Positions 1-17,633 of a DNA stretch of 20,000 nt are shown here, piece by piece. A program made the translations under genes and the position numbers. The notes beneath the pieces are model-generated. The model was not told the origin of the DNA, made no database searches, and was given only the letters and a program-made list of their open reading frames with translations. This stretch comes from an uncultured virus (IMG/VR IMGVR_UViG_3300027229_000005) (lineage: Duplodnaviria > Heunggongvirae > Uroviricota > Caudoviricetes). The stretch's first letter is position 1. Each line of letters opens with the position of its first letter. The DNA lies in IMG/VR virus record IMGVR_UViG_3300027229_000005; one strand, given 5' to 3'.

Positions 1-1077
1 TCAGGCTCATCTGGCTCTTCAGGTACTGATGGTACTTCAGGCTCATCTGGTTCTTCAGGTTCTGATGGTACTTCAGGCTCATCTGGTTCTGATGGTACTT
101 CAGGTTCTTCAGGTACTGATGGTACTTCAGGCTCATCTGGTTCTTCAGGTACTGATGGTACTTCAGGTTCTTCAGGCACTGATGGTACTTCAGGTTCTGA
201 TGGTACTTCTGGTTCATCTGGTACAGATGGCGTTGGAGGTATTACACAGGCTGGAACTAACATTGATGTTTCGGGTTCTGGTACAGTTGCAGACCCTTAT
301 GTAATTAGTGCTTCTTCATTAGCAAGTGGATCTTCAGGTTCATCAGGTACTGATGGTACTTCGGGTTCTTCAGGTACAGACGGTACTTCGGGTTCTTCAG
401 GTACAGACGGTACTTCGGGTTCTTCAGGTACAGACGGTACTTCGGGTTCTTCAGGTACAGACGGTACTTCGGGTTCTTCAGGTACTTCAGGAGATAATGG
501 TACTTCAGGTTCATCAGGCACGGACGGCACATCAGGTTCATCTGGCACAGACGGTACATCGGGTTCTTCAGGTACAGACGGCACTTCAGGTTCATCAGGT
601 ACTGATGGCACTTCTGGTTCTTCAGGTACTTCAGGTGACAATGGTACTTCGGGTTCTTCAGGTACTTCAGGTGACAATGGTACTTCGGGTTCTTCAGGAA
701 CTGATGGTACTTCAGGATCATCAGGCACGGACGGTACTTCAGGTTCTTCAGGAACTGATGGTACTTCAGGTTCATCGGGTACTTCAGGTGACAATGGTAC
801 TTCGGGTTCTTCAGGTACTTCAGGTGACAATGGTACTTCGGGTTCTTCAGGAACTGATGGTACTTCAGGATCATCAGGCACAGACGGTACTTCAGGTTCT
901 TCAGGAACTGATGGTACTTCAGGTTCATCGGGTACTTCAGGTGACAATGGTACTTCGGGTTCTTCAGGTACTTCAGGTTCATCTGGCACGGACGGCACTT
1001 CTGGTTCTTCGGGTACTAATGGTACTTCAGGTTCTTCAGGTACAGATGGTACGTCAGGTTCTTCAGGTACTAATGGT
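1..1077 (+). repeat. Coding low-complexity 9/27/36-bp repeats (GGTACTTCA/GGTTCTTCA) with a 153-bp higher-order duplication
   Basis: Direct reading; GGAACTGATGGTACTTCAGGATCATCAGGCAC occurs at 697 and 850 (offset 153). Confidence 0.9.
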
Positions 1078-1638
1078 CTTGGAATTCCTTCAGGTGGTAC
1101 ATCAGGTCAAGCGCTTGTTAAAATTGACTCTAACCCATATAACGTACAGTGGTCTACTATCTCAGGAGGTTCTGGTTCAGGAACTAACAAGTATCTACTA
1201 AGACTTGAATATGATTCATCAAACCACCTAGTTAATAACACTACAGATAACAAGTTTGTTTCTGCAACTGGATTCTTGACTGCAAACGCATCAGTTGACT
1301 CAGTTTCAGTTAATACTTCAACGGCAATTTATACAGCTACAGTTTCATTCAATGAATCAAATCCACCACTTGCAATTCAGGTTCTTGCATGGGATCCTGC
1401 AACTTACAAGTATGAAGTTCACGCCTACAGAGTTGACGCTGCACTAGCTAAAATTGATTCTGCAGCTGCAAACTTCTCTACGTCTGGCACAAATCAACTT
1501 GTTCCAAACTTCTTAAATGGTGCATTTACAACATCAATGACACTTGACGTAAGAAAAGACTTTATTAAATACGGTAATAAATCAGGTTTGGGTTCTTCTG
1601 CAAGAAACGCTCACGCATACGTAATATTTGTATTCTAA
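1..1638 (+). CDS. 5'-truncated Gly-X-Y ([12 protein letters not shown]) repeat fibre protein with a C-terminal non-repetitive domain
   Basis: Frame +1 is open from base 1 ([14 protein letters not shown]...) to TAA at 1636-1638; the tracked 1276..1638 ORF is only its C-terminus. It contains fibre-type linkers ITQAGTNIDVSGSGTVADPYVIS (241-309) and GIPSGGTSGQALVKIDSNPYNVQW (1081-1152). Confidence 0.85.
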   Translation, partial: SGSSGSSGTDGTSGSSGSSGSDGTSGSSGSDGTSGSSGTDGTSGSSGSSGTDGTSGSSGTDGTSGSDGTSGSSGTDGVGGITQAGTNIDVSGSGTVADPYVISASSLASGSSGSSGTDGTSGSSGTDGTSGSSGTDGTSGSSGTDGTSGSSGTDGTSGSSGTSGDNGTSGSSGTDGTSGSSGTDGTSGSSGTDGTSGSSGTDGTSGSSGTSGDNGTSGSSGTSGDNGTSGSSGTDGTSGSSGTDGTSGSSGTDGTSGSSGTSGDNGTSGSSGTSGDNGTSGSSGTDGTSGSSGTDGTSGSSGTDGTSGSSGTSGDNGTSGSSGTSGSSGTDGTSGSSGTNGTSGSSGTDGTSGSSGTNGLGIPSGGTSGQALVKIDSNPYNVQWSTISGGSGSGTNKYLLRLEYDSSNHLVNNTTDNKFVSATGFLTANASVDSVSVNTSTAIYTATVSFNESNPPLAIQVLAWDPATYKYEVHAYRVDAALAKIDSAAANFSTSGTNQLVPNFLNGAFTTSMTLDVRKDFIKYGNKSGLGSSARNAHAYVIFVF

Positions 1639-1642
1639 GACT

Positions 1643-3589
1643 ATGGCAATCTACAATCCAACCAATCCACCCCTATTTCTATCCGGTAGAATCACATCTA
1701 TTAACGGTTTAGATCAGTATCCTTATGAGGATTCAACTGGCATTAAAGCAACCGGTGCATATTACACCTTTGAAATCACAGTTGATCAAGTAACTTCGCA
1801 ATCCATCGGTACTGCTAATTCTCGTTCAGGTAACGTTAAAGAGTACAATGGATTGGACATTAAGGCTGGAGATTGGGTTACAAGTGAAAATGGTCAGATT
1901 GTTCTAAAGATTGAATCAATCGAAACTAAATCCGAAACGTCTATTTCTTTTATCGCAAAAGACGTAGATATGATTGCGTATAAACTTTACGCTTCAAATT
2001 ATCTTACAACAAATTCTAAGCTAGCTTTCTTTGAAGTTTCAGATAACAATGTGCCTCTTCTAACTACTGGGGCAGTTCAATCTTTCTTTCCAACTCCAGC
2101 GTCAATGGATAAGATCCAAGGTCGCTTTGCAGCTGAAGAAGAAACAGAAAGATACAGATTTGAATTTTCAACTTCTCAAACAGGTTATAATTCAGGCGAC
2201 ATTATTACAGTTTCAGCTGAAGGCGAGTTTGTAAAGCTTGGAACTCCGGGTGCTGCAGAAGTTCCAGTTGGTTTGGTTCTTGAAAAGACAATGAATGACA
2301 CTGTAGTTTACATTAAGCCATTTAACACGTTAATTGATAACCACTCAAACCCTGAACTTCTTAATGGTAATGCTGGTGAAATCTACTACATGGACCCTAC
2401 AGTTCCTGGTGGAATCACAACAACTGCTTCAAGAGGAGCTAAAGCACTTTTCCTACAAGTTAAAGATCCAGTTCAAACTGAAGTTAGAGCTACTATTTCA
2501 AACTACTTACCGGGTTCTTCAGACATGATTATCTTTAATGAGATTCCAGTGTTTGATGGTTCTTCAGATGAAGTTTCAACAGTTCAAGATTTTGTTGACC
2601 TAATTAACGTATCAACTGATGATCACCATATCACAGCATCTAAAGAATCAGAGTTTTCATCTTTGCTTTCTAACGCATCTGTTGCAACTAATGGTGTATC
2701 AATCCTAGCGCTATCAGATAACACAGGCGCAAGTTACACCCAGATTGATGTAACAATCAGCGATGGTACAAATTCAACAACAGTTCTATTTGACCAAACA
2801 ACAGTAACTTCTCCAATCGCATATCCAGATGCACCGGAATACCTATTGGTTAATGCTCAGATCGCAGCTGATCTTTTTAACGCTGCTTTTCAAGCTGATG
2901 GCCTAGATCTTGAAGCAATCGCAATCATACCAGGAGACGGAGCTTACTCATCTACCTTTGGACAATTGAAGATTCAAGCTATTACATCAACGGCTTCAAT
3001 CTCTATCACAACAACTGACGTTGACGTTCTAGGAGATACATTCCTATCAGGTTTTGGTATCGCGGCTTCAGCCCCTGCAAACGGAGCTGACTTCTTGATT
3101 TTAACAAGACAAGATGGTGGAGATCTAATGATCACCGGTAATGGAACATATATCAACCAAAACGGTATCACATCTTCATCAGCGGGTTCTTCTGCAGTTC
3201 TTCTAATGCTAGAAGGCGTTAATGACGAACCAGAAACGGGAGTTAATGTATCAGTTGATAAAAACCAGGTTGTGGCTTCAACCACAACACACGATCACTA
3301 TGTGACAGGAATCAATATCGACTACACTCCATTCCAGGATAGCGATGTAATTGTTAAAATTAACGGTGTTGAAGTTAACATCGGAGATGGAGACAACGAA
3401 GATGATTGTTACTTTACAGATCCTACCCTTTCAGGTTACAATACTGATGGAAACGCAATGGTCGCCAAGCTGATTAAAGACATTGCATCCGGCGACGTAT
3501 TGATCTGGAACCCTACCTATGCAGGTTATGGACTAGATCCATCAGATGATATTGACGTTATTTACCAGGCTTCTTCTTACGACCTGTAA
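1643..3589 (+). CDS. Putative virion structural protein (648 aa, acidic, beta-rich); C-terminal domain paralogous to 10230-10988
   Basis: ATG at 1643 lies 4 nt after the upstream stop and is preferred to the TTG at 1628. The C-terminal TGINIDYTPFQDSDVIVKINGV...DCYF...AKLIKDIASGDVLIWN...DDIDVIY matches the 10230 protein. Confidence 0.75.
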   Translation: MAIYNPTNPPLFLSGRITSINGLDQYPYEDSTGIKATGAYYTFEITVDQVTSQSIGTANSRSGNVKEYNGLDIKAGDWVTSENGQIVLKIESIETKSETSISFIAKDVDMIAYKLYASNYLTTNSKLAFFEVSDNNVPLLTTGAVQSFFPTPASMDKIQGRFAAEEETERYRFEFSTSQTGYNSGDIITVSAEGEFVKLGTPGAAEVPVGLVLEKTMNDTVVYIKPFNTLIDNHSNPELLNGNAGEIYYMDPTVPGGITTTASRGAKALFLQVKDPVQTEVRATISNYLPGSSDMIIFNEIPVFDGSSDEVSTVQDFVDLINVSTDDHHITASKESEFSSLLSNASVATNGVSILALSDNTGASYTQIDVTISDGTNSTTVLFDQTTVTSPIAYPDAPEYLLVNAQIAADLFNAAFQADGLDLEAIAIIPGDGAYSSTFGQLKIQAITSTASISITTTDVDVLGDTFLSGFGIAASAPANGADFLILTRQDGGDLMITGNGTYINQNGITSSSAGSSAVLLMLEGVNDEPETGVNVSVDKNQVVASTTTHDHYVTGINIDYTPFQDSDVIVKINGVEVNIGDGDNEDDCYFTDPTLSGYNTDGNAMVAKLIKDIASGDVLIWNPTYAGYGLDPSDDIDVIYQASSYDL

Positions 3590-3660: not shown

Positions 3661-3669
3661 GATATATAG

Positions 3670-3724: not shown

Positions 3725-5716
3725 ATGGCACAAATTCGTTCAAAACAAATTTCAGATTTCTTAGCACAGGTTAACTGGGCAACTGTTAAGACAACTGAAA
3801 TCCCTAACGCATTCGACGTTGACGCAAGATTCGACACAGTAGAATCTGATCTAGTAGACGAAAGCGCTGCAAGAGGCGCCGCTGACTCGGCTCTATCTGC
3901 ATCTGTCGATTCTCTAGAAACTGCTCTATCTGCTGAGATTGAGGCTACTAACACTGATGTTACTGAACTTTACGCAGCTCTATCTGCTGAAGCTGACACA
4001 AGAGAAACTGAGATGAACACTCACCACGATGAGCACGTTAGTCTTATCACCGCTGAGTCTGGAAGAGCTATCGCTGCTGAAGGTTTCCTAGGCGCATCTG
4101 TTGATTCTCTAGAAGTTGCTGTTTCTATCGAATCTGAAAGAATCAATGCGATTCTTGACGGTTCTACAGTTGATCTAGACCAATTTGCAGAAGTTGTTTC
4201 TTACGTAAACGGTCTTGACCTTGTGAATGATAACTCATTCATCTCAAGAGAGACTTTCGTTGATGGTAGACTAAACAGACTAGACTCTTCAGTTGATTCT
4301 CTAGAATCTGCTCTAGCTGGCGAAATCGAAGCTACTAACGGCGACGTTACTGCAATCAATGCTTCTATCGACTCTCTAGAAAACAAGGCTGGTACTGACG
4401 TTTCAGCTCTTATCGCTTCTGTTGATTCTCTAGAAGGTGTTGACGCAGACCTACAACAGGCTATCAATTCTCTTGAAGAGAAGCACAATGATGAGATGAA
4501 CACTCACCACCTTGAGCACGTATCTCTAATTACAGCTGAAGAAGAAAGAGCTATCGCTGCTGAAGGTTTCCTAGGCGCATCTGTTGATTCTCTAGAGCTT
4601 GCTCTAGCGAACGAAATCGAAGCTACTAACACTGATGTTACTGCACTTTACGCAGCTATCGATGCTGAAGAAGGAAGAGCTGGCGCTGCTGAAGGTTTCC
4701 TAGGTGCTTCTGTTGACTCTCTAGAGCTTGCTCTAGCGAACGAAATCGAAGCTACTAACACTGATGTTACTGCACTTTACGCAGCTATCGATGCTGAAGA
4801 AGGAAGAGCTGGCGCTGCTGAAGGTTTCCTAGGTGCTTCTGTTGACTCTCTAGAGCTTGCTCTAGCGAACGAAATCGAAGCTACTAACACTGATGTTACT
4901 GCACTTTACGCAGCTATCAACACTGAGTCTGGAAGAGCAGGCGCTGCTGAAGGTTTCCTAGGCGCATCTGTTGATTCTCTAGAAGTTGCTGTTTCTATCG
5001 AATCTGAAAGAATTAACGCAATTCTTGACGGTTCTACAGTTGATCTAGACCAATTCGCAGAGGTTGTTTCTTACGTACAGGGTCTTGACCTTGTGAATGA
5101 TAACTCATTCATCTCAAGAGAGCTTTACGTTAACAACTACCTAACATCTCTAGACGCTTCAGTTGATTCTCTAGAATCTGCTCTAACTGGCGAAATCGAA
5201 GCTACTAACGACGACGTTACTGCAATCGGCGCTTCTATCGACTCTCTAGAACTTGCATTGAACAACGGTTCAGGCGCTCTAGTTGATTCAGTTGACTCTC
5301 TAGAGCTTGCTCTAGCAGCTGAAATCTCAACTACTAACGCTGAAGTTGCAGGTATTAACTTGTCAATTGACTCTCTAGAGCTTGCTCTAGCGAACGAAAT
5401 CGAAGCTACTAACGGCGACGTTCTAGCTATCATCGATTCAGTTGATTCTCTAGAGCTTGCTCTAACAGCTGAGACTAATTTAAGAATTTTCGGTGATACA
5501 TACGCTGAAGTTGAAGTTACTGGTATTACAGCTGCTGCTGGTCCAGTTGTTATTTCATCTCCAGTTCTATTCGCAGAAGGTTCTTTCGATACAGAAGTTT
5601 ACGTTAACGGTCTAAGAGTAGCATTTACTCAAATGAATCCTAATGATTTCGATCTAAACCTAGTTTATGCTATCGAAGCTTCTGACATCATCAGAATCGT
5701 TGGTGTTCAAGCTTAA
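3725..5716 (+). CDS. Repetitive acidic coiled-coil fibre protein (663 aa) with a small C-terminal beta domain
   Basis: The ATG at 3725 (MAQIRSKQI) is preferred because the tracked TTG 3659 extension overlaps a terminator and a hairpin. It has recurrent SVDSLE and ExxRAxAAE motifs and two AILDGSTVDLDQFAEVVSYV motifs resembling the 'LDTLxEIA' phage-fibre motif. The C-terminus reads VYVNGLR...DIIRIVG. Confidence 0.8.
   Translation: MAQIRSKQISDFLAQVNWATVKTTEIPNAFDVDARFDTVESDLVDESAARGAADSALSASVDSLETALSAEIEATNTDVTELYAALSAEADTRETEMNTHHDEHVSLITAESGRAIAAEGFLGASVDSLEVAVSIESERINAILDGSTVDLDQFAEVVSYVNGLDLVNDNSFISRETFVDGRLNRLDSSVDSLESALAGEIEATNGDVTAINASIDSLENKAGTDVSALIASVDSLEGVDADLQQAINSLEEKHNDEMNTHHLEHVSLITAEEERAIAAEGFLGASVDSLELALANEIEATNTDVTALYAAIDAEEGRAGAAEGFLGASVDSLELALANEIEATNTDVTALYAAIDAEEGRAGAAEGFLGASVDSLELALANEIEATNTDVTALYAAINTESGRAGAAEGFLGASVDSLEVAVSIESERINAILDGSTVDLDQFAEVVSYVQGLDLVNDNSFISRELYVNNYLTSLDASVDSLESALTGEIEATNDDVTAIGASIDSLELALNNGSGALVDSVDSLELALAAEISTTNAEVAGINLSIDSLELALANEIEATNGDVLAIIDSVDSLELALTAETNLRIFGDTYAEVEVTGITAAAGPVVISSPVLFAEGSFDTEVYVNGLRVAFTQMNPNDFDLNLVYAIEASDIIRIVGVQA
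4559..4985 (+). repeat. 129-bp (43-aa) near-perfect tandem repeat, about 3.3 copies
   Basis: GAAGGTTTCCTAGG begins at 4562, 4691, 4820 and 4949; unit AEGFLGASVDSLELALANEIEATNTDVTALYAAIDAEEGRAGA. Confidence 0.95.
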
Positions 5717-5750
5717 TTGAATAACAACCTTTAAGTGATTTAATTCACAG

Positions 5751-5779
5751 AGGGCTTCCCGCAAGGGAAGCCCTTTTTT
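5751..5779 (+). terminator. Rho-independent terminator
   Basis: AGGGCTTCCC-GCAA-GGGAAGCCCT is a perfect 10-bp stem with a GNRA loop, followed by a T-tract. Confidence 0.92.
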
Positions 5780-5826
5780 ATTGACGAATAAATAAAACAA
5801 AGCCAGTAAAAACACTTACAATATAG

Positions 5827-7017
5827 ATGAAGATAGGAATCACAATCGGTCTACAATCCGATTACGAAAGTATATGGATCAACGGTATTAAATTGAATGC
5901 CCTGCTCTTAGCAAATGCTCTAATGAAAATAGGCAAATATGAAGTTGTAATTCTCGATACTAGCCGAAAGGTAACAGATCTATCAAAGGTTTCATGGGAC
6001 GTTAATAAATTTCCAATCGAAGATTATTGGAAAGTATATCCAACCGTGGATATTTTAATAACACTTGGAACTTCTTTTCCAACTGAGATTTTAGATCAAT
6101 TCAGAAAATCAGGACCAAATAAGAAGGTTGTCAAATACATGTGCGGTAATTCTTATGTAATTGATATGGAGCGTTCTATTTTTAAAGAAGGTAATGATCT
6201 GGGTAAAGCACCATGGGATCCAGGAGCCGATCAATTATGGTACGTACCCCAACAGGGCTATCAAAATCATGAATACTATAAGGTTGCATTTAGAAATGAA
6301 AACGTTTTCCCAGTTCCTTTTGTATGGGATCCTATGTTTTTAGATATTGAGGTGCTTAGGGCAAGAATTAAAAAGACAAAAACGCCATACTACATTCCAG
6401 GTAAAGAAAACTCTGAAAAGCTTCTATCAGTATTTGAACCTAACTTAAACGTAGTCAAATATGCAATGATACCTATTATGATTGCAGAGAAAGCACTTAG
6501 AGAAGGTGTAGAATTTAAGAAAATGAATGTGGCGAGTGGACAAAGACTTCTTAAGAATGGATACTTTAAGTCAATGATTGCGACTATGGATATTGTCAAT
6601 GGCTCACAAGGTCCAAAGATTAGTTTCACATCACGATACCCCGTTACTCACTACTTAGCTAATGGAGCTGACGTTATAGTTTCACATCAGTGGGAAAACC
6701 CACTAAATTATTCTTATCTAGACGTGATGTACTTTGGATTTCCACTAGTTCACAATGCTGATATGATCAAGGATGCAGGGTACTACTATTCAGATTTCAA
6801 TGTCAATGAGGGATACAATCAATTAAAATATGCAATTGAAGAACACGATAATAATCTAGAAGAGTATAAGCTAAGAAATCAAAAGGTACTAGACAGATAC
6901 ACTGTCAAAAACCAAGATCTATTAGATACTTACGAGAAGTTAATCGAAAATCTCTTTGAAAAGGATAAACATCAATTAAGTTACAATTACAATTGGCAAA
7001 CTAATACATATTTCTAA
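5827..7017 (+). CDS. DUF2827-like protein, probable GT-B-fold glycosyltransferase
   Basis: Motifs MKIGIT...SIWINGI, YMCGNSYVIDME, VPFVWDP, FEPNLNVVK, DVIVSHQWENPLNYSYLD, PLVHN and GYYY, which I recognise as DUF2827-like. Glycosyltransferase activity is inferred. Confidence 0.7.
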   Translation: MKIGITIGLQSDYESIWINGIKLNALLLANALMKIGKYEVVILDTSRKVTDLSKVSWDVNKFPIEDYWKVYPTVDILITLGTSFPTEILDQFRKSGPNKKVVKYMCGNSYVIDMERSIFKEGNDLGKAPWDPGADQLWYVPQQGYQNHEYYKVAFRNENVFPVPFVWDPMFLDIEVLRARIKKTKTPYYIPGKENSEKLLSVFEPNLNVVKYAMIPIMIAEKALREGVEFKKMNVASGQRLLKNGYFKSMIATMDIVNGSQGPKISFTSRYPVTHYLANGADVIVSHQWENPLNYSYLDVMYFGFPLVHNADMIKDAGYYYSDFNVNEGYNQLKYAIEEHDNNLEEYKLRNQKVLDRYTVKNQDLLDTYEKLIENLFEKDKHQLSYNYNWQTNTYF

Positions 7018-7773
7018 ATGAAAATCAGCGTTATCATGATGAGCTACTTGGATGAATATCCAAATGCTAGAACCAATTCTATTCCAAAATTCAAAAGAGC
7101 TGTAAATTCTTTTTTAGAACAAGATTATGAAAATAAAGAATTGGTAATAGTAGCAGATGGATGTGACATAACTAAGAGCCTATATGAAAAGCATTTTTCA
7201 AAATACGATAATGTTAATTTAATTTGGGTTGAGAAATCAAAATCTAGATGGCCTGGAAAGATTAGACAATTAGGCATTTATTATTCAACAGGTGATTATA
7301 TTGCATATTTAGATGCAGACGATGTTATTATGCCTACTCATTTAAGCTCAATTTCAAAAGCAATTACTGAATCTAATGGTGCAAAGTTCTTGCTTAATAC
7401 CGGCGGATCTGTACCCATCATCATTGATGAACCCTATAAGTTTGAAAAAACTGGAATAATTGAAATAACTTCAAGCTTTAAGTTGGATATGCAAACTATT
7501 GAGAACAATGCTAAGGCCGGCAAAATTTACATTGTAGACCTGCCATTGTATGGCAAGTTAATGTTATACAAGTTAACATTTGAAGATCCTTCAGGCACAC
7601 ATCTTGTCGTCCATTCCAGAAATGTAAATTCAAAATGGAGCAGTATCGATGATCCAATGGGCGGTGAAGACAAAGTATTTATTGAGGAATTGAAAAAAGA
7701 ATACAAACCTTATATGTTCAAAGAGTATACATATATAGTCTGCCACTCTAAAATGAAAAATCATGACGTATAA
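7018..7773 (+). CDS. Glycosyltransferase family 2 (GT-A fold)
   Basis: KISVIM...SFLEQDYENKELVIVADG, GDYIAYLDADD (DxD motif) and GGED. The ATG abuts the upstream TAA (TAAATG). Confidence 0.9.
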   Translation: MKISVIMMSYLDEYPNARTNSIPKFKRAVNSFLEQDYENKELVIVADGCDITKSLYEKHFSKYDNVNLIWVEKSKSRWPGKIRQLGIYYSTGDYIAYLDADDVIMPTHLSSISKAITESNGAKFLLNTGGSVPIIIDEPYKFEKTGIIEITSSFKLDMQTIENNAKAGKIYIVDLPLYGKLMLYKLTFEDPSGTHLVVHSRNVNSKWSSIDDPMGGEDKVFIEELKKEYKPYMFKEYTYIVCHSKMKNHDV

Positions 7774-7775
7774 CC

Positions 7776-8906
7776 GTGAAAAACTATTTAGATCTATTAA
7801 ACGAGTTTAATAACACTCCAAAACCGGTTGAATCTGAAAAAACTCAGGAGATTCAAAAGCCTATTCCTCCTTCTCCAGTTCTAAGACCTAGACCCGAAAT
7901 TAAAAAGGTTGAATCCAAGCCAAAGATCGAAGATAAGAAAGTGGAACCTGCGCCTCCAAAGAAAAGTAGATTTGAACAAGCAAAGGAACAAATAGAAAAA
8001 GAAAAAACACTTCCAAGGCAAGAACCAACTCAAACTAAAATAGAGCCAACATCGCAGCCAACGATAAATGTTAAAACTTTTACAAGACCTATCATGAAAA
8101 AACCCGATCCAGCTCTAACACCCGCTCCAAAGGTTGAATCAAGAAAAGCTATTGATTATCCTAAAATCTCAATTATAATGCAGACTTATCTTGGAGATTA
8201 TCCAGGTTCTCGTATAAATTCTGAGCTTAAGTTTAAAAGAGCAATTGCAAGTTTCATTAAACAGACTTATGAAAATTGTGAGTTGATTATCGTTTCTGAT
8301 GGATGTAGTGTAACTCATAATTTATGGATCAATGAAATTCAAGGAATTAATCGCATCAAATATGCCTATGTAGATAAATCTGGATATGGCAATATGTATG
8401 AAAAAGATCAAACTGGAGAAAAGATCTATAGAGGAATTCCAAGAGCAGTGGGCGTAACTATCGCAACCGGTGATATTATTACATATTGTGACTCAGATGA
8501 TTTTATGCTTCCGTATTTTTGTGAAATGCTAGTTCTTCAACATCGTGCAAATCCAAATTCAGATTGGATGGTAAATTCAGCATGGTTTGATCATGAAGCA
8601 ATGATAACTTCATCCGCTGCTGCCGGAGAAGTCTTAAAATCTTATGAAAATGCTAGAGTCTTAAACTCTCCTTTTTCTAAAGATTATAAATTTGTTGAAT
8701 CAAGGGTTAAGGAAGGTTTTGTAGTTAATACACCTTGGTTGCTAGCTCACATGTCAAGTTGTGAAGTTAAATGGGAAGATTCTAAAGGAGGTGTTAGTGA
8801 AGATACGCTATTCGGTAGAAAGCTAAGATCTAAATATCCAACTGGCCACGTCTACTCAAGCCCAACGTATTTGAGATGTCACTATTCAGGCCTCTGGGAC
8901 GTTTAA
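7776..8906 (+). CDS. Glycosyltransferase family 2 with an approximately 125-aa Pro/Lys/Glu-rich N-terminal extension
   Basis: GTG start 2 nt after the previous stop; PKISIIMQTY...QTYENCELIIVSDG, GDIITYCDSDD and VSED motifs. Confidence 0.85.
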   Translation: MKNYLDLLNEFNNTPKPVESEKTQEIQKPIPPSPVLRPRPEIKKVESKPKIEDKKVEPAPPKKSRFEQAKEQIEKEKTLPRQEPTQTKIEPTSQPTINVKTFTRPIMKKPDPALTPAPKVESRKAIDYPKISIIMQTYLGDYPGSRINSELKFKRAIASFIKQTYENCELIIVSDGCSVTHNLWINEIQGINRIKYAYVDKSGYGNMYEKDQTGEKIYRGIPRAVGVTIATGDIITYCDSDDFMLPYFCEMLVLQHRANPNSDWMVNSAWFDHEAMITSSAAAGEVLKSYENARVLNSPFSKDYKFVESRVKEGFVVNTPWLLAHMSSCEVKWEDSKGGVSEDTLFGRKLRSKYPTGHVYSSPTYLRCHYSGLWDV

Positions 8907-10091
8907 AAATACGGGATCATATCCATATTTTTGACAATAGGCGTTCATTTTCTTTTGTAGCTCTGACGAAACTGATTGAAGTTCATTCTTTAAACTTTCA
9001 AATCCTTGATGTTTTCGATCATTAACCACGCTCTGTGGAGAAACCCATTTTACGTTTAGATTCTTATCTTTTAAGAAATTGAACAAATCTATGGCTTGAT
9101 CTTCAACCCGATATGTAAACTTGGGTCCCATTTTAATTATTAATTCGTCCCATCTTAAGATAGAATGAATAGCCTGTTCAACGGGATTCGATGATCTAGA
9201 TACCCTGCCTCTTCTAATTCTAAATTTAAGAGATTCGGGCCTAACGTCTTCAGTGAAAACAATTGATGGAATAGAATCCTTAGGGTTTCTGACGTTATAA
9301 ATTAAGATTTCAGGTTTTAACTTATCAGTGTGCTTAATCCACGGCCATGGCCCATTTTCAATTACATGTTGCCACGCTACAATTCCATCCTCCATAAGTT
9401 TTTCGTGACCTATTCTTAAACCCCAGCTACTTAATATAGAAGCTGTAAAACCTGTCCCAGTTCTAGGATGTCCTACGCCTAAGATTAAAACCTTTTTACG
9501 ATCTAATCCTAGCGATTTTTCCATGTGCTTAACATACTGTTGCATTATTTTGGGCTTTTCTTCTTCACTAGCGTGATACCAAGTCCATGCAACTGAACCC
9601 TGAATACCTTCAATTTCTTTTTGGACTTTATCACTTTCATGTTTTAATTCATTAACATGATCATAATACTCTTCACCGAGTTCAATCTCCAACTTAATTG
9701 CAGTAGTAATTAAAAGAGCCCAGTTATAATCATCATTAGCTTTAATACTGCTCTCATATAACTGCTTAAGTCTTAATCTTTCGCTATCAGAAGTATCAGG
9801 TGATAGTCTGTCAGGGTGACACTTAACCACCATTTTTCTAAAAAGTTTCTTAAATGAAGGATCTCTTTCAGGCTCTTCTTCTGAATCTTTCGCTTGATTG
9901 GCCTGTTCAGCTGCATCTGAAGTTACCTTACTATCAAATAAATCTGGCCTTTTTAATCCTGCAATCGCGGAGCTAAAATCAGAATTAATATTAGATTGTA
10001 TTTCCTTTAGATCATTCAAGTCCTCAATGAAGAACTCATATTGTCTAATCATTCGTTTGAAATCTATTATCTGAGAGCCTAGCTTTTTCAT
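8886..10091 (-). CDS. Fusion of a J-domain-like (HPD) helical region and a PAPS-dependent sulfotransferase-like domain
   Basis: FKKLFRKMVVKCHPDR (HPD at 9810-9818), ILGVGHPRTGTGFTASIL (5'-PSB-like loop) and YNVRNPKDSIPS (3'-PB-like motif). Its 3' end overlaps the convergent GT2 gene by 21 bp. Confidence 0.7.
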   Translation of the reverse strand: MKKLGSQIIDFKRMIRQYEFFIEDLNDLKEIQSNINSDFSSAIAGLKRPDLFDSKVTSDAAEQANQAKDSEEEPERDPSFKKLFRKMVVKCHPDRLSPDTSDSERLRLKQLYESSIKANDDYNWALLITTAIKLEIELGEEYYDHVNELKHESDKVQKEIEGIQGSVAWTWYHASEEEKPKIMQQYVKHMEKSLGLDRKKVLILGVGHPRTGTGFTASILSSWGLRIGHEKLMEDGIVAWQHVIENGPWPWIKHTDKLKPEILIYNVRNPKDSIPSIVFTEDVRPESLKFRIRRGRVSRSSNPVEQAIHSILRWDELIIKMGPKFTYRVEDQAIDLFNFLKDKNLNVKWVSPQSVVNDRKHQGFESLKNELQSVSSELQKKMNAYCQKYGYDPVFLNVPEA

Positions 10092-10229
10092 GCAATTTAC
10101 GTAGATTAAGTCTTTGATTAAAATGATTAAAAATCAGCCAGTATGTAAACTTTAACCCAATCTTTGTGTATATATACCATAGTGAGAAAACCCTCAAACA
10201 TAAACCTCAAATAAACAATCTAGTAAGAC
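10092..10229. promoter_or_regulatory. AT-rich divergent intergenic region with palindromic GTATATATAC (10168-10177), candidate phage promoter
   Basis: It lies between divergent genes. A similar TATATA core (GATATATAG, 3661) precedes the 3725 gene at a similar distance from the ATG (64 versus 62 nt). Confidence 0.4.
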
Positions 10230-10988
10230 ATGTCTCAAATCAAAATCAAACAGATTGATGGCTTGCAAGAGATTCTTGACGCTATCATTCTTTCGATCAC
10301 GTCTGGATCGCTAAAGTCAACCTTTACACAGGTTGGCCATGGCTTCTCAGCAGGTCAGGTTGTTGCCTTCGACGGTGGTACATGGGTCCTTGCTGATGCA
10401 TCTATTGAGGACAAACTAGGTAGAATTGTTATTGAATCAACTCCATCCGCCGACACTTTTGTCGGTGTTCAGGTTGGTAAGGTAACAGTTGCTACTTGGA
10501 ATCTTGTCCCAGGTGCGTTTTATGTTGTTGACGATTCAGGAACGGGTAATCCTGTATTGTTCACAACAAACGACGCGTATGCATACAGTAACCCAATCAT
10601 GCAGGCAATTACCGAAACGACAGCACATGTCCTTCCTTGGAGACCATCAGTTGGTGGCGCACCAGTCGACACAGGAGTCGAAGTGTACCAAAGAGATCAA
10701 AACCCTCTACCAACCAACGGTGATTATTCAGCGACGGGCATTACAATTAATTACACTCCTTTCTTGGATTCAGCGGTTGACATTCTAGTCAACGGTGTTG
10801 GTGTTCAAGAAGGAAACGGTGTTAGAACATCAGACTGTTACTTCTCCAATGACGGAGGTCTAACAGCTAAGCTGATTGCTGACATCGAAGCCGGCGACGA
10901 ATTATACTGGAACGGCGAACTTTCAGGATTTGATTTGACTGCAGATGACATTATTGACATCATCTACAACAAATCAGCTCTAGATTAA
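10230..10988 (+). CDS. Putative virion structural or decoration protein (252 aa)
   Basis: N-terminal MSQIKIKQI, a central HGFSAGQVVAFDGGTWVLADA...LVPGAFY beta module, and a C-terminal domain paralogous to that of the 1643 gene. Confidence 0.75.
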   Translation: MSQIKIKQIDGLQEILDAIILSITSGSLKSTFTQVGHGFSAGQVVAFDGGTWVLADASIEDKLGRIVIESTPSADTFVGVQVGKVTVATWNLVPGAFYVVDDSGTGNPVLFTTNDAYAYSNPIMQAITETTAHVLPWRPSVGGAPVDTGVEVYQRDQNPLPTNGDYSATGITINYTPFLDSAVDILVNGVGVQEGNGVRTSDCYFSNDGGLTAKLIADIEAGDELYWNGELSGFDLTADDIIDIIYNKSALD

Positions 10989-11018: not shown

Positions 11019-14000
11019 ATGGCAATTCCTTTAATTAAAACGACAGGTACCTCAGGTTCTTCTGGTTCTTCAGGTACTAACGGTACTTCAGGTACTTCCG
11101 GCACAGCCGGAACTTCGGGTACCTCGGGTTCATCAGGTACGTCTGGCTCGTCTGGTACTTCTGGTTCTTCAGGTACGTCTGGTTCGTCTGGTACTTCTGG
11201 TACTTCTGGTACCGCTGGTACTTCAGGAACTTCAGGTACATCTGGATCTTCAGGTACATCTGGTTCTTCAGGTACTTCGGGTACTTCAGGTTCTTCAGGC
11301 TCATCTGGTTCATCAGGTACAGACGGTACCGATGGTACGGACGGTAGTTCCGGTTCATCAGGTACTTCGGGTACTTCAGGCACTTCAGGTTCTTCAGGTT
11401 CATCTGGTACTTCAGGTCTATCTGGAACTTCGGGTCTAGATGGTACGGACGGTAGTTCCGGTTCATCTGGTACTTCAGGTTCATCAGGTACAGATGGTAC
11501 ATCAGGTACTTCAGGTACTTCAGGTACTTCAGGTACTTCGGGTTCATCTGGTACAGACGGAACTTCAGGTTCATCTGGTACAGACGGAACTTCAGGCTCA
11601 TCTGGTACAGACGGAACTTCAGGCTCATCTGGTACAGACGGAACTTCAGGCTCATCTGGTACTTCAGGTACTTCAGGTACTTCGGGTACTTCAGGTACTT
11701 CAGGTTCATCTGGTACTTCAGGTTCATCTGGTACTTCAGGCACTTCAGGTACTTCAGGTTCATCTGGTACAAATGGTACTGGCGGTTCTTCAGGTTCATC
11801 TGGTACTTCTGGTACTTCTGGTACTTCTGGTACTTCTGGTACTTCTGGTACCTCTGGTTCATCAGGTACAGATGGTACATCAGGTACATCAGGTACTTCA
11901 GGTACTTCGGGTACTTCAGGTACTTCAGGTTCATCAGGTACAGATGGTACATCAGGTACATCAGGTACATCTGGTACTTCAGGTTCATCAGGTTATGATG
12001 GCGCTAAATCAGGATGTTACGGCGATCCAAATGGTGACGTAACAGGTTCATTCGTTGGTCAACTTTATTTTGACTGTGACGGTGGTATTTGGGAATGGTC
12101 AGGCTATGGTCCTGGTAACCCTGCACCATGTGATCAAGGTATGGACGTTGTGTTCTTGGTTGACTACACCGGTTCAATGGGTGGAGCAATCAACAACGTT
12201 AAGTCTTCAATTGCAGCTATCGCTTCAACGATCGAGACAGAATCTAATAACAACTACAGACTATCTCTTGTAACATTTGACGAGTACGGAGTTGACGGTA
12301 CACCAACTTACGGTGCAACTGCAACTTACAACGCTCTTCCATCTACACAGAGATACATTCTAAACAATTACACAGCTAGCAGATCTTCACACATCACTGC
12401 TCTAGAGACATTCTCGTCAAACAACATCTCTTCGTTCACTTCACAGTTGAACAAGATGAATACAGTTGACTTCCCTCTAGGTAATGGTCAAGGTACTCCA
12501 GAACCAGCAGGTATTGCTCTTGATAGAGTAATCAACTCTGGTATGGTAGGTGGCTTTAGAGAAGGTGTTGCTAAGTACATTGTTCTTATTACAGACGCAC
12601 CTGACGGTGGTAGCGACGACGCATACACTCAAGCAGATATTGATTACGCTGATGTATTGAAAGTTGACGCTTACAACGCTAACGCACAGGTGCTGTTGAT
12701 GACTACTTATTCAACTTCATCACTTAACACAATCGCAACCTATTCTGGTGGTATTGTTACTAACAGCCACGCCCCTGGTGCGGTACAAACAGTGATCGAA
12801 GAGACATGTACGGCTAACGAAGGATCTACTCCAGGTGGCGGCGCATGGACATTTAAAGGTTACATTTCAGGTGAAGCTGGTCTTCCAGGTTCTTCTGGTA
12901 CTTCTGGAACTTCTGGCACAGACGGTACATCTGGAACATCTGGTACTTCTGGTACTTCAGGTTCATCTGGTACTTCTGGTACTTCTGGTACTTCAGGTTC
13001 ATCAGGTACAAACGGTACTTCAGGAACATCTGGTACTTCTGGTACTTCTGGTACTTCTGGTTCATCAGGTATAACTGGTGAAGGAGGTTCTTCTGGTTCA
13101 TCAGGTACAGATGGTACTTCTGGTTCATCGGGTCTATCTGGTACTTCAGGCTTAGACGGCACTGATGGTACATCAGGTACTTCAGGTACTTCAGGTACTT
13201 CAGGTACTTCAGGTTCATCTGGTACAGACGGAACTTCAGGTTCATCTGGTACAGACGGAACTTCAGGCTCATCTGGTACAGACGGAACTTCAGGCTCATC
13301 TGGTACAGACGGAACTTCAGGCTCATCTGGTACTTCAGGTACTTCAGGTACTTCGGGTACTTCAGGTACTTCAGGTTCATCTGGTACTTCAGGTTCATCT
13401 GGTACTTCAGGCACTTCAGGTACTTCAGGTTCATCTGGTACAAATGGTACTGGCGGTTCTTCAGGTTCATCTGGTACTTCTGGTACTTCTGGTTCATCTG
13501 GTACTTCTGGTACTTCTGGTACTTCTGGTACTTCGGGTTCTTCAGGTACAAACGGTACAAACGGTACTTCGGGTTCTTCAGGTACAAATGGTACAAACGG
13601 TACTTCGGGTTCTTCAGGTACAAACGGTACTTCGGGTTCTTCAGGTACAAACGGTACTTCAGGTTCTTCAGGTTCTTCGGGTTCATCTGGTTCTTCAGGT
13701 ACAAACGGTACTTCAGGTTCTTCAGGTTCTTCGGGTTCATCTGGTTCTTCAGGTACAAACGGTACTTCAGGTTCTTCGGGTTCTTCGGGTTCTTCGGGTT
13801 CATCTGGTTCTTCAGGTACAAACGGTACTTCAGGTTCTTCAGGTACAAATGGTACAAACGGTACTTCAGGTTCTTCAGGTACAAATGGTACAAACGGTAC
13901 TTCAGGTTCTTCAGGTACAAACGGTACTTCAGGTTCTTCAGGTACAGATGGTACAGACGGTACTTCAGGTACTAACGGTACTTCAGGTTCTTCAGGTACT

Positions 14001-17000
14001 AACGGTACTTCAGGTACAAACGGTACTTCTGGTACTTCTGGTACATCAGGTTCTTCAGGTACAAACGGTACATCAGGTACAAACGGTACTTCTGGTACAT
14101 CTGGTTCTTCAGGTACTGCTGGTACTTCAGGTTCTTCAGGTACAAACGGTACATCAGGTACAAACGGTACTTCTGGTACTTCTGGTACTTCTGGTACTTC
14201 TGGCACTTCTGGTACAAACGGTACAAACGGTACTTCTGGTACTGCTGGTACTTCTGGTACATCAGGTGTTAACGGTACAATTGACGCGCCTTATTTCTTT
14301 GGTGGTCAAGGAGATGCAACTGCAACTAACTTCACCACAAATACAGGCGATCTATACAACGCAACAGAAATTAGAATCAATAATTTCGATAGATGGATGA
14401 ATGACAGAACAACCCTTCATAATGTGATGGGTGCTGCTTCACAACTATTGTTCGAATTTAACGGTGCTGATAGACACGAGTTCACAATTAATGCTAAATT
14501 GATTGTCGGTAACGAAGCAGTCTTCACTGTTGCTAGAATTAACTCTCCAGATCCTGGTTATGTGCCAGTGATCGGAAACATGCTAATTATTAAATACACG
14601 GTTGCAGGTGCAGGCGGTATCTCGGGTACTTCAGGTTCATCTGGTTCATCTGGTACATCAGGTTCTTCTGGTACATCAGGTACTTCAGGTACTGCTGGAA
14701 CATCAGGTTCTTCTGGTACATCAGGTACTTCAGGTACTGCTGGAACATCAGGTTCTTCTGGTACATCAGGTACTAACGGTACATCAGGTACTAATGGTAC
14801 ATCTGGAACTTCAGGTTCATCTGGTTCATCTGGTACATCAGGTACTTCAGGTACTTCTGGAACATCAGGTACAAACGGTACATCAGGTTCTTCTGGTACT
14901 TCAGGTACTTCAGGTACTGCTGGAACATCAGGTTCATCAGGTACAAACGGTACTTCAGGTACTTCAGGCTCATCTGGTACATCGGGTACTTCTGGTACAT
15001 CGGGTACTTCTGGACATGATGGTGCTAAGTCAGCATCTTCAGTTGTAGAATTAGGTACAGGTTCATTCCCTGGTCAACTAGGTTTCACAGCAGACGGTCT
15101 TGTTTATCAATGGGACGGAGCTGCCGCATGGAACCTAGTAGCTGATCTAAACGGTACTTCTGGTTCATCTGGTTCTTCAGGTACTAACGGTACTTCAGGC
15201 TCATCTGGTTCATCTGGTTCATCTGGTTCTTCAGGTACTAACGGTACTAACGGTACTTCAGGTACAAATGGTACTTCAGGATCATCTGGTTCATCTGGTT
15301 CATCAGGTACAAATGGTACTTCTGGTACAAATGGTACTTCTGGTTCATCAGGTTCATCGGGTTCTTCAGGTACTTCAGGTTCATCTGGTACAAACGGTAC
15401 TTCTGGTACAAACGGTACTTCAGGTTCATCAGGTTCATCAGGTTCATCAGGTTCATCAGGTACATCTGGTTCTTCAGGTGTTAACGGTGCTAAAGGTGCT
15501 ACTGGTGCTCAAGGTGCTCAAGGTGCTCAAGGTGCTCAAGGTGCTCAAGGTGCTCAAGGTGCAGTCGGTACTGCAGCAACAATCGATGTTGCTCCAGCTC
15601 TTACTGGTGCAGAAGGTACTCCAGTTGAAGTTCTAAACATTGGAACGCCTTTGAACGCTAACCTAGAATTCACAATCCCAATTGGTCAAAAAGGTCAAAA
15701 AGGTGCTACAGGCGCTCAAGGAGCTGCAGGTACTTCTGGTACTTCAGGCTCATCGGGTACAAATGGTACAAACGGTACTTCTGGTACAAACGGTACTTCT
15801 GGTACATCTGGTTCATCAGGTACAAATGGTACTTCTGGTACTAATGGTACAAGCGGTACTTCTGGTACAAACGGTACTTCTGGTACAAACGGTACTTCTG
15901 GTACAAACGGTACTTCTGGTACTTCAGGTTCATCAGGCACAAACGGTACTTCTGGTACAAACGGTACTTCTGGTACTTCTGGTTCATCAGGTACATCTGG
16001 TTCTTCAGGTGTTAACGGTGCTAAAGGCTCTACTGGTGCTCAAGGTGCTCAAGGTGCTCAAGGTGCATCAGGTTCATCAGGTTCATCAGGTACATCTGGT
16101 TCTTCAGGTGTTAACGGTGCTAAAGGTGCTACTGGTGCTCAAGGTGCTCAAGGTGCTACAGGTGCCCAAGGTGCTCAAGGTAACGTAGGTACTGCAGCCC
16201 AAGTTAACGTTGCTCCAACAGTTACATCGGCTGAAGGTACTCCTGCTCAAGTTGTAAACCTAGGTGATACTTTAAACGCCAACTTTGAATTTACAATTCC
16301 AGTTGGTCAAAAAGGTCAAAAAGGTCAGACTGGTGCTACGGGTGCTCAAGGTGCTCAAGGCGCTGCTGGTACTTCAGGTACATCTGGTTCATCTGGTTCA
16401 TCAGGCACGTCTGGTTCTTCAGGTGTTAACGGTGCTCAAGGTGCTCAAGGCGCTGGCGGTGCTACAGGTGCTCAAGGCGCTACTGGTGCTCAAGGTGCTC
16501 AAGGTGCTCAAGGTGCTCAAGGTGCTCAAGGTGCTGCCGGTACTTCTGGTTCATCAGGTACTTCTGGTTCATCAGGTACATCTGGTTCTTCAGGTGTTAA
16601 CGGTGCTAAAGGCTCTACTGGTGCTCAAGGTGCTCAAGGTGCTCAAGGCGCTACAGGTGCTCAAGGTGCTCAAGGTGCCGCAGGTGTCAATGGTACTTCT
16701 GGTTCATCAGGTACTTCTGGTTCTTCAGGTGTTAACGGTGCTCAAGGTGCTCAAGGTGCTACAGGTGCTCAAGGTGCTCAAGGCCAAAAAGGCGCTACAG
16801 GTGCTCAAGGCGCTCAAGGCGCTCAAGGTAACACAGGTACTGCAGCAACAATCGATGTTGCTCCAGCCCTAACAGGTGGACCTGGTACTCCAGTTGAAGT
16901 TCTAAACATTGGTAACGCTACCAATGCTAACTTCCAGTTTACTATTCCTTCAGGTGTACAAGGTGCTCAAGGTGCTGGTGGTGCTAAAGGTTCTACTGGT

Positions 17001-17633
17001 GCTACAGGTGCTCAAGGTGCTCAAGGCGCTGGCGGTGCTACAGGTGCTCAAGGTGCTACAGGTGCTCAAGGTGCTCAAGGTGCAGCTGCTCCTATCACAA
17101 ACAACGTCAACAATAGAGTTCTTACAGCCACTGGTTCTACAACCATCAACGGTGAAACTAACCTAACGTTTGACGGTAACACGCTCCTATGGAAAGCCGG
17201 TGATGTTGGTTTCTACAGCCAACCTGGTGGTCCATACCCGAACGGGACCTGGGTCGAATTCTCTAACAGCGCAATGGTGAACGACGGAGATATGGAAGCT
17301 CCAATGCCAATGATGTGGGATTTTGTATCTAATGGAGTTGGTTTCCAAGGTTCATCACTACGATTCAAGACTGATGTTGAAACTCTAACATTTGACGCTG
17401 AGGAATTCCTAAGCCTGAATGCTAGAGAGTTCACATGGAAAGAATCTGGTAAGAAAGACCTAGGTTTCATTGCAGAAGAAGTTGCTGCATTTGACGAGAG
17501 ACTAGCAGTTTCTGACGGTCAAGGTGGCTTCATCTCGATGCATTACGACAAAATGACGGTTTACTTATTCGAAATCGTTAAGGACCTACACTCTAGAGTG
17601 AAGGATCTAGAAAATAGAATAAATAAACTTTAA
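11019..17633 (+). CDS. Giant (2204 aa) Gly-X-Y repeat fibre protein with a vWA domain, several knob modules and a C-terminal Peptidase S74 intramolecular chaperone
   Basis: Uninterrupted ORF with [12 protein letters not shown] then GAQ/GAT triplets, a vWA motif [26 protein letters not shown]...[10 protein letters not shown], and SSLRFKTDV...GFIAEEV...[15 protein letters not shown]. Confidence 0.9.
11493..13493 (+). repeat. 330-bp direct repeat pair (11493-11822 and 13164-13493) flanking the vWA module
   Basis: Aligned by eye, the copies are identical except G/A at 11540/13211. The offset is 1671 bp (557 codons). Confidence 0.85.
12129..12809 (+). other. von Willebrand factor A (vWA) domain within the 2204-aa fibre
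   Basis: MIDAS-like DYTGS (12162), [18 protein letters not shown] and [10 protein letters not shown]; bounded by Cys codons at 12129 and 12807. Confidence 0.88.
15567..16949 (+). repeat. Three dispersed 38-aa 'GTAA...FTIP' collagen-interrupting modules (15567-15680, 16188-16301, 16836-16949)
   Basis: [114 protein letters not shown]. Confidence 0.9.
17352..17633 (+). other. Peptidase S74 / intramolecular chaperone auto-processing domain
   Basis: SSLRFK (Ser...Lys dyad pattern), GFIAEEV, and a terminal coiled coil [18 protein letters not shown]. Confidence 0.88.

Follow-up and report, generated by a model that had tools for sequence, protein, structure and literature searches.

The window analysed here is a 20,000-nucleotide stretch of DNA from an uncultured Caudoviricetes virus (IMG/VR record IMGVR_UViG_3300027229_000005), and its genes and elements are collected in Table 1. 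An earlier note, made from the letters alone, had proposed that four modification enzymes in a structural block decorate Ser/Thr-rich Gly-X-Y virion fibres with sulfated glycans. The four enzyme ORFs were present where that note had placed them, and the surroundings are those of a virion-fibre locus, but the direct flanks are a repeat stalk gene and the 252-aa gene, not the GTS fibres. A fixed four-gene operon was rejected, since the last of the four genes runs toward the others from the minus strand and its sulfotransferase half was present in 5 of the 32 DUF2827 loci; the sulfotransferase is thus an optional, minority add-on. No membrane segment was predicted from sequence in any of the four enzymes.

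Table 1. Genes and elements of the fibre locus (positions in the window)
Feature	Positions	Strand	Remarks
Gly-X-Y fibre gene, 3' part of 907 aa (GTS/GSS/GTD triplets)	1..1638	+	129 triplets, 77% S/T at X/Y; possible secondary acceptor
Conserved fibre-locus protein, 653 aa, function unknown; kin to 252-aa protein	1628..3589	+	
ATATATA, late-promoter-like motif of stalk gene	3662..3668	+	ATA[AT]ATA in 24/27 homologs
Acidic Ser/Thr/Ala repeat protein, 663 aa, predicted coiled-coil stalk	3725..5716	+	Best candidate DUF2827 acceptor
Intrinsic-terminator-like hairpin closing stalk transcript	5749..5776	+	
ATAAATA, late-promoter-like motif of DUF2827	5788..5794	+	
DUF2827, GT-B fold, predicted initiating glycosyltransferase	5827..7017	+	Pfam E 6e-89
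GT2 glycosyltransferase, DADD motif, abuts DUF2827 stop	7018..7773	+	Pfam E 2e-15
Second GT2 (paralog), DSDD motif, ~120-aa Pro/Lys/Glu-rich N-terminus	7776..8906	+	Pfam E 4e-9
J-domain/sulfotransferase fusion gene, whole	8886..10091	-	
Sulfotransferase-fold domain, C-terminal half of fusion	8889..9494	-	GHPRTGT and R-x7-S motifs; predicted structure
J-domain-like co-chaperone, N-terminal half of fusion	9507..10091	-	HPD motif
Palindromic GTATATATAC between divergent fusion gene and 252-aa gene	10168..10177	.	Could serve both genes
252-aa fibre-locus protein	10230..10988	+	N-terminal I[KR]xKQI motif common to stalk and fibres
Gly-X-Y fibre, 2204 aa, GTS/GSS-rich, vWA insert, C-terminal S74 chaperone	11019..17633	+	Possible secondary acceptor
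Third Gly-X-Y fibre, GAQ-rich	17697..20000	+	Continues past window end

The phage is T4-like and Lak-related; its major capsid protein (MCP) was nearest to LR756500 (52%) and then to Lak (35-38%). A longer, near-identical record of the same phage, G053 (99.7-99.9% identity across three overlaps), encodes APS kinase (E 2e-18), two Sulfotransfer_2 genes, Glf, UDP-sugar dehydrogenase, GlmS and epimerases. It also carries many further glycosyltransferases, scattered and distant from the fibres, and because they sit so far away, other glycan targets exist in G053. The phage encodes a late sigma factor and, 55 kb away beside the polymerase, a T4-type DNA alpha-glucosyltransferase (C1:1589-2809, E 5e-30). 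No cultured phage with this DUF2827 was found. The moraphages, as described in the accessible part of PMC12619734, are large relatives of Lak that are T4-like and encode DnaJ, ClpA and four core glycosyltransferases. Judged by MCP nearest matches and shared gene types, they resemble this phage. That part of the paper does not link the glycosyltransferases to fibres, and the words "collagen" and "sulfotransferase" do not appear in the paper.

DUF2827 has a predicted GT-B fold

The DUF2827 protein matched the Pfam profile PF10933 with 298.8 bits against a cut-off of 25, over positions 1-362 of 362, while no significant sequence match was found in PDB and none in PHROG. Its structure model (pLDDT 90) aligned with BshA (Foldseek E 6e-11; VIA Z 22.6, rmsd 4.4, 325 aligned), and by this modelled fold DUF2827 is a GT-B glycosyltransferase. 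The fold leaves the acceptor unnamed, because the enzymes that match best have small molecules, lipids or DNA as acceptors. GtfA and SdgB were among the fold matches, GtfA (Z 16.6) being no nearer than other GT-B enzymes.

Both downstream GT2s matched PF00535 and carry a DxD motif, and the best PDB match of the first was GalT1 (5hea, E 3e-10). The proposal that DUF2827 and the GT2s are glycan-building enzymes was supported (Pfam matches in Table 1). Among 40 long DUF2827 homologs, 29 were fused to other glycosyltransferases or methyltransferases. The slot behind DUF2827 is taken in relatives by GT2s, pyruvyl transferase, hexapeptide acetyltransferase, HtrL, Sulfotransfer_2 or, in some relatives only, a PLOD-type glycosyltransferase.

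A repeat stalk gene is paired with DUF2827

The start of the stalk gene was set from the conserved MAQIRSKQI. The product contains 14 S[VI]DS[LI]E repeats and 16% S+T, with no Pro in residues 31-600; its heptad signal was weak, the top period (3.55) standing barely above others. We found no YadA-type Pfam match, no sequence-level match to autotransporters among those compared, and only unnamed viral clusters in Atlas. The stalk is also dense in D[ST][AILVMT], the Bacteroidota O-glycosylation motif (2.6 versus 0.2 per 100 aa). The Bacteroidota system is periplasmic. Stalk glycosylation of the Bacteroidota type was set aside and the enrichment discounted because of that location and because the motif count mirrors the stalk repeat.

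Using the stalk's own N-terminal DNA pattern, we collected 51 stalk loci, many of them near-copies. DUF2827 lay directly behind the stalk gene in 50, and the remaining locus stops at the contig edge. From the other side, inspection of the 32 non-redundant DUF2827 loci with an upstream gene found a stalk-type gene there in 29. Three distant relatives (L314, L318 and L319; 18-20 kb loci) have GTS fibres and neither stalk nor DUF2827. The stalk-DUF2827 synteny lies inside one lineage and may be explicable by shared descent.

We then turned to bacteria. Among the best 80 bacterial DUF2827 loci, counted in six frames and without a matched control gene, 50 had a 150-aa stretch with an S+T share of 45% or more no further than 8 kb away. 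These stretches were mostly SLST-repeat autotransporter stalks, with 45-70% S+T as against the phage stalk's 16%. DUF2827 arrays beside trimeric autotransporter adhesins have been described, with DUF2827 put forward as a cytoplasmic glycosyltransferase that acts on the neighbouring fibre (bioRxiv 10.64898/2026.01.22.700529, accessible part). The phage enzyme belongs to the same Pfam family, and the adjacent bacterial stalks were extremely Ser/Thr-rich in our loci. However, the phage DUF2827 is single-copy and followed by GT2s and the J-domain/sulfotransferase fusion, and its partner, less rich in Ser/Thr, has no autotransporter anchor. In both systems, glycosylation of the partner is a proposal.

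GTS/GSS fibres do not track DUF2827

The Ser/Thr-rich Gly-X-Y fibres are as the earlier note described them: the 2204-aa fibre has 490 triplets (186 GTS and 118 GSS), with 73% Ser/Thr at X/Y and 1 Pro. The expected co-occurrence of the enzymes with such repeats failed in both directions. GTS-type fibres were found in only 13 of 32 DUF2827 loci, the other 19 being GTS-poor, and DUF2827 was found in 0 of 74 flanked GTS loci and in 0 of 47 sampled GTS-fibre records (positive control 5/5; only 4 records at least 90% complete). Neither GT2 presence (7/13 GTS-rich versus 12/19 GTS-poor loci) nor sulfotransferase presence (3/13 versus 2/19) tracked GTS content. On a quick DUF2827 tree the GTS label switched 5 times, 4 of them forced by strong branches. 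Given the absent association and the label switching, GTS/GSS fibres were rejected as a co-evolving partner of DUF2827. They may also be glycosylated, yet they are not what holds DUF2827 in place.

We therefore consider it unlikely that a four-enzyme cassette is dedicated to these fibres and builds a sulfated, mucin-like coat on them. With about 1000 Ser/Thr set in nearly Pro-free Gly-X-Y runs, the fibres would suit that role; Gly-X-Y genes occur in 29/33 DUF2827 loci, most keeping at least 14% S/T at X/Y, and BclA is glycosylated (PMC8968730, accessible part). In 10 of 18 DUF2827-less GTS-fibre records a GT4 lay within 12.5 kb (4.4 expected), and locus L215 has a sulfotransferase and APS kinase between two GTS fibres. 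The GT4 signal is modest, with a combined p of 0.089 overall and 0.028 without contig-end anchors at a cut-off picked post hoc, and GT2s showed no enrichment near GTS fibres (3/18 versus 4.3 expected).

The fourth gene encodes a predicted fusion of a J-domain-like and a sulfotransferase-fold half

The sulfotransferase-like call of the earlier note held for half of the fourth gene, but the gene is on the minus strand and its other half is a putative co-chaperone that the note had not seen. Residues 1-195 are J-domain-like, with HPD, and matched the DnaJ profile below cut-off (E 0.039). A stand-alone J-domain homolog was also below cut-off (E 1e-4), and HPD was invariant in 6 aligned sequences.

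Residues 200-401 form the predicted sulfotransferase-fold domain (model pLDDT 92), which had no Pfam match of its own and nothing significant in PDB by sequence. Comparison of the model with TPST1 gave VIA Z 10.9, rmsd 3.7 and 168 aligned residues. The best six VIA rows were all sulfotransferases (Z 9.0-10.9, ~170 aligned), while kinases reached up to Z 9.0 with ~115 aligned. GHPRTGT, R69 and S77 were invariant across 30 homologs, of which 7 and 6 weakly matched Sulfotransfer_4 and _3 (best E 0.008). GHPRTGT and R-x7-S correspond to the 5'-PSB loop and the 3'-PB motif of PAPS-dependent sulfotransferases.

Gly-X-Y genes were absent within 6 kb in 35 of 41 loci of the sulfotransferase family. 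The family included 6 J-fused members, all 6 in a DUF2827 fibre locus. Of three fusion-carrying records searched, one had APS kinase, and the other two are 49-59% complete. APS kinase and NDP-sugar enzymes occur in the same phage population. A role for the sulfotransferase on the fibre or on its glycan is possible, though we lean against it.

Promoter-like motifs suggest late expression

The motif ATA[AT]ATA was found upstream of 30/34 DUF2827 genes and in 2.9% of genome windows. It preceded 4/8 head/tail genes versus 0/13 replication genes (Fisher p 0.012), was also found ahead of ClpA (9/13), and was missing before the major capsid gene and the T4-type alpha-glucosyltransferase gene. It was likewise missing within 80 nt of the G053 APS kinase and of most distant glyco-genes, many of which are operon-internal. 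In most relatives a hairpin and T-run were seen by eye between stalk and DUF2827. These motifs suggest that DUF2827 and its neighbour enzymes are probably late-expressed.

Discussion

The three predicted glycosyltransferases and the fusion likely sugar-coat the phage's own fibres and possibly also sulfate them, the rod-shaped fibre next door being a likelier target than the Ser/Thr-rich collagen-like fibres. The glycan-coat reading of the earlier note thus survives in that soluble, probably late enzymes lie in a fibre locus and are unlikely DNA modifiers, but its link to GTS repeats does not. Virion glycosylation is favoured because of the late-promoter-like motif, the lack of membrane segments and the separate DNA alpha-glucosyltransferase.

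We lean, by a little, toward DUF2827 and the two GT2s being a late, cytoplasmic O-glycosylation module for the phage's own fibres, most likely the upstream stalk; the fusion would be optional and may put a terminal sulfate on the glycan. Starting at the motif downstream of the stalk terminator, the late sigma factor would transcribe DUF2827 and both GT2 genes. DUF2827 would transfer the first sugar from an NDP-sugar to Ser/Thr residues as the stalk is being made, a role also proposed for bacterial DUF2827 on autotransporter stalks, and the GT2s would extend it. The J-domain would recruit host DnaK to the folding fibre, bringing the fused, PAPS-using sulfotransferase with it. The DUF2827 acceptor is quite probably a fibre of the same locus. 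Protein O-glycosylation by DUF2827 would accord with its gene context; among the fold matches, protein glycosyltransferases do not stand out.

The same order is known from streptococcal serine-rich repeat adhesins, where GtfA/B place the first sugar on Ser/Thr repeats and the chain is then lengthened by GT-A enzymes such as GalT1, the best PDB match of the first phage GT2. The phage differs in that its GT-B starter, DUF2827, is not specially GtfA-like and there is no accessory Sec system. Phage-encoded glycosyltransferase series also modify mycobacteriophage virion proteins, as proposed here, according to the accessible parts of PMC12619734 and PMC10877033; in those phages the C-termini of capsid and tail-tube proteins are modified, whereas here the acceptors would be repeat fibres, the initiating enzyme belongs to another family and the glycan may end in sulfate. 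Mimivirus collagen and Bacillus BclA (PMC8968730, accessible part) are glycosylated Gly-X-Y surface fibres with dedicated enzymes, but they rely on hydroxylysine or on GPT-type repeats, and their enzymes come from other families.

Glycosyltransferases in the fibre region of T4-like pelagimyophages have been read as O-chain modifiers (PMC7029224, accessible part), and the pyruvyl, acetyl, HtrL and GT2 enzymes of the slot are typical of surface-polysaccharide clusters. Remodelling of host LPS or capsule to block superinfection is nevertheless rather improbable here, given the late-type promoter motif, the lack of membrane segments in all four enzymes and, in phages and bacteria alike, a strict pairing with a protein fibre. 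Still less probable is a non-protein product, such as a small molecule or free glycan, with the sulfotransferase a passenger or a TPST-like enzyme sulfating protein residues directly. The best GT-B matches are indeed small-molecule enzymes such as BshA, a polyketide sulfotransferase scores level with TPST1/2 at the top of the sulfotransferase-fold matches, and most of the sulfotransferase family lies away from fibres; but a non-protein product leaves unexplained the fixed position behind the stalk and the fusions to chain-extending glycosyltransferases. Hypermodification of phage DNA, for which T4 alpha-GT is among the DUF2827 fold matches (Z 19.4) and viral glycosyltransferases that assemble oligosaccharides on DNA at a late stage of infection offer a precedent (PMC13326640, accessible part), is very improbable in a phage with its own T4-type enzyme elsewhere, and bacterial DUF2827 sits with adhesins.

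The preferred reading, a fibre-glycosylation module, would give the DUF2827 family, found beside Burkholderiales adhesins as well, a candidate activity, and the locus offers a small soluble enzyme-substrate pair of non-pathogen origin suited to testing it. Glycosyltransferases beside the fibres of large T4-like phages, usually read as host-LPS or DNA modifiers, would become virion-coating enzymes. Because our full-text search found no paper joining phage, sulfotransferase, adenylylsulfate kinase and virion, a phage coat that bears sulfate would come as a real surprise. More speculatively, and we doubt it, this phage would build a sulfated fibre coat with its own late enzymes (DUF2827 priming, GT2s extending, the J-domain delivering a PAPS-fed sulfotransferase), while hundreds of IMG/VR GTS-fibre phage sequences would have reached glycosylated, sometimes sulfated fibres through other initiating enzymes, large GT4s. 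If so, proteoglycan-like virions would be a common trait of large phages.

Enzymes of the cassette

The DUF2827 protein was predicted (pLDDT 90) to adopt a GT-B fold, and the best fold matches of the model were GT4-type enzymes. Among 40 long DUF2827 homologs chosen from a profile search, 29 had a second glycosyltransferase (GT) or methyltransferase domain, the extra domains of the long homologs including GT32-like DXD, GT2, GT25, GT9 and PLOD-type. Both GT2 genes directly abut the DUF2827 block, and the nearest PDB sequence to the first is streptococcal GalT1. The fourth enzyme, which the earlier note called sulfotransferase-like, is a two-part protein. The description holds for its C-terminal half, which has a sulfotransferase fold in the predicted structure and keeps the PAPS-binding motifs; the N-terminal half is instead J-domain-like and is a separate stand-alone protein in most relatives. 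Stand-alone homologs of the C-terminal half, of about 205 aa, also exist (30 matches). Membrane segments were predicted in none of the four enzymes.

Features of the window, its contig and related loci
Feature	Location	Strand	Observation
Stalk gene	window, 3725-5716	+	663-aa acidic Ser/Thr/Ala repeat protein
DUF2827	window, 5827-7017	+	
First GT2	window, 7018-7773	+	
Second GT2	window, 7776-8906	+	
J-domain-sulfotransferase fusion	window, 8886-10091	-	
252-aa protein	window, 10230		
Main GTS/GSS fibre	window, 11019-17633	+	vWA domain between GTS runs; S74 chaperone domain at C-terminus
Alpha-glucosyltransferase	contig, C1:1589-2809		T4-type DNA enzyme ortholog, adjoining polymerase, among replication genes
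Slot after DUF2827	L304:6327-9310; L308:6288-9307		40% S+T protein and unannotated 752-aa protein, not GT2
Interrupted DUF2827	L025:10001-11219 (G049)		TAG inside DUF2827; stalk gene split
Putative sulfation genes	L215:3888-6523		between two GTS fibre genes: sulfotransferase, unannotated gene, APS kinase, small nucleotidyltransferase
Scattered glycan-synthesis genes	G053, 126-157 kb (L202-L204)		Glf, UDP-sugar dehydrogenase, GlmS, epimerase, carbamoyltransferase; also GT2-TPR, 1285-aa GT9-GT9-GT4, cysteine-synthase-like gene adjoining APS kinase

Cassette and GTS/GSS fibres

It was proposed in the earlier note that the cassette modifies the collagen-like GTS/GSS fibres and co-occurs with them. 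Of 60 viral DUF2827 loci collected, 33 were non-redundant, and Gly-X-Y genes were present in 29 of these. Three loci were added to the 29, and only 13 of the resulting 32 Gly-X-Y loci had GTS/GSS-rich fibres, the others being built from GDQ, GAQ, GFQ or GPT. The presence of GT2 and sulfotransferase showed no tie to GTS content across the 32 loci, and when 46 DUF2827 proteins were placed on a quick tree, the GTS label required five changes. A reverse search used a GTSGSS DNA pattern with serine as TCN codons only, and 144 matches in 8 of 64 parts gave an estimate of about 980 IMG/VR stretches. DUF2827 was found with two profiles in none of 74 flanked GTS-fibre loci, and in none of 47 whole GTS-fibre records, only four of which were at least 90% complete (positive control, 5/5). 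On these counts the proposed co-occurrence fails, and we consider it unlikely that the GTS fibres are the main acceptor.

Among GTS-fibre records of at least 88 kb, a GT4 lay within 12.5 kb of the fibre in 10 of 18, where 4.4 would be expected; the excess is modest and was identified post hoc. The gene maps of GTS-fibre loci were picked for having a nearby GT4. In L207, L208, L214, L215 and L216, from phages without DUF2827, multi-domain GT4 proteins of 650 to 900 aa adjoin GTS fibres, and some carry GT9 or FkbM domains. GTSGSS-type Gly-X-Y fibres in IMG/VR are nearly proline-free, reach 4,600 aa and are common across several phage lineages.

DUF2827 and the stalk gene

An acidic Ser/Thr/Ala repeat protein precedes DUF2827 in 29 of 32 loci. 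When the stalk gene was sought by its own start pattern, DUF2827 was the next open reading frame in 50 of 51 loci, many of them near-copies and all from one lineage. Three relatives at a greater distance, which carry GTS fibres, have neither gene in their loci. Two features of the stalk in the window, a content of only 16% S+T and a weak coiled-coil signal, count against it as the partner of DUF2827. In locus L025, the interrupted DUF2827 and split stalk may reflect decay, assembly error or recoding.

Among bacteria, mostly Burkholderiales, 50 of the best 80 of 296 DUF2827 stretches had a 150-aa stretch with at least 45% S+T inside 8 kb, chiefly SLST autotransporter stalks. This agrees with the link between DUF2827 and such adhesins in a preprint (bioRxiv 10.64898/2026.01.22.700529) and with the O-glycosylation suggested for these repeats in PMC7142374.

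The stalk and the 252-aa protein have an N-terminal motif, xxI[KR]xKQI, in common with many fibres of these phages (L002-L060); the motif may be a common virion-docking peptide. Downstream of DUF2827, L027, L033 and L034 encode non-collagen proteins of 900 to 1200 aa in which S+T reaches as much as 69% over a 150-aa stretch.

Phage setting and expression timing

The window is the final 20 kb of a 71-kb contig encoding a split DNA polymerase, ribonucleotide reductase, UvsX and helicase, together with a late sigma factor, portal, prohead protease, major capsid protein, terminase, sheath and tube. The capsid protein is closest to LR756500 (52%), followed by Lak phages (35 to 38%). By sequence, this resemblance fits the moraphage-like large phages, for which Bacteroidota hosts are predicted (PMC12619734). 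A 170-kb record, G053, is 99.7 to 99.9% identical to the contig across three overlaps and reaches beyond it.

The motif ATA[AT]ATA resembles the T4 late promoter, TATAAATA. On the contig, none of the 13 replication genes has it upstream, as against 4 of 8 head/tail genes and 3 of 5 fibre-locus genes. It stands about 30 nt 5' of DUF2827 in 30 of 34 cases, right after the putative terminator of the stalk gene, and is absent 5' of ClpP (0/21) and a thymidylate-synthase-like gene (0/17). Since ClpA carries it in 9 of 13 cases, the motif is not strictly structural; it is a candidate late promoter of the Lak-related phage group.

Possible sulfation

Six of 41 viral loci of the sulfotransferase family were J-domain fusions, all six inside a DUF2827 fibre locus; the other 35, many of them short, had no Gly-X-Y gene within 6 kb. 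G053 encodes APS kinase, NDP-sugar enzymes and two Sulfotransfer_2 proteins, one just 3' of the fibre block. The small gene after APS kinase has an HxGH motif and no Pfam match, so it is only a putative ATP sulfurylase. Judged from these genes, sulfation is within the predicted means of the phage. Few records have APS kinase (4 of 37, one of them a weak match), and a search of two other fusion-bearing records, both incomplete, revealed none.

Proposed role of the cassette

Virion glycosylation is known in giant viruses and, according to PMC12619734 and PMC10877033, in mycobacteriophages. The passages on DUF2827 in one of two papers found by full-text search make no mention of phages, and in the literature covered, which excludes most subscription journals, neither a phage DUF2827 system nor a sulfated virion was reported. 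GTs among T4-like phage fibre genes were interpreted as LPS modifiers (PMC7029224), and actinophage GTs as DNA or cell-wall modifiers (PMC10202952). Remodeling of the host surface by our cassette is, in our judgment, rather improbable, and action on a non-protein product somewhat more so. Modification of DNA is very improbable, as the separate alpha-glucosyltransferase, which suggests that the phage DNA is glucosylated, would already serve that function.

We favor, with moderate confidence, fibre glycosylation by the cassette, a scheme in which we infer every catalytic step. Late in infection, DUF2827 would likely prime Ser/Thr residues of nascent fibres, with the stalk as the best guess for the acceptor, and the GT2 enzymes would lengthen the glycan so begun. 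The variable slot would tailor this glycan, with pyruvyl, acetyl or sulfate groups in relatives, and the J-domain would bring DnaK and, in the phage of the window, the sulfotransferase.
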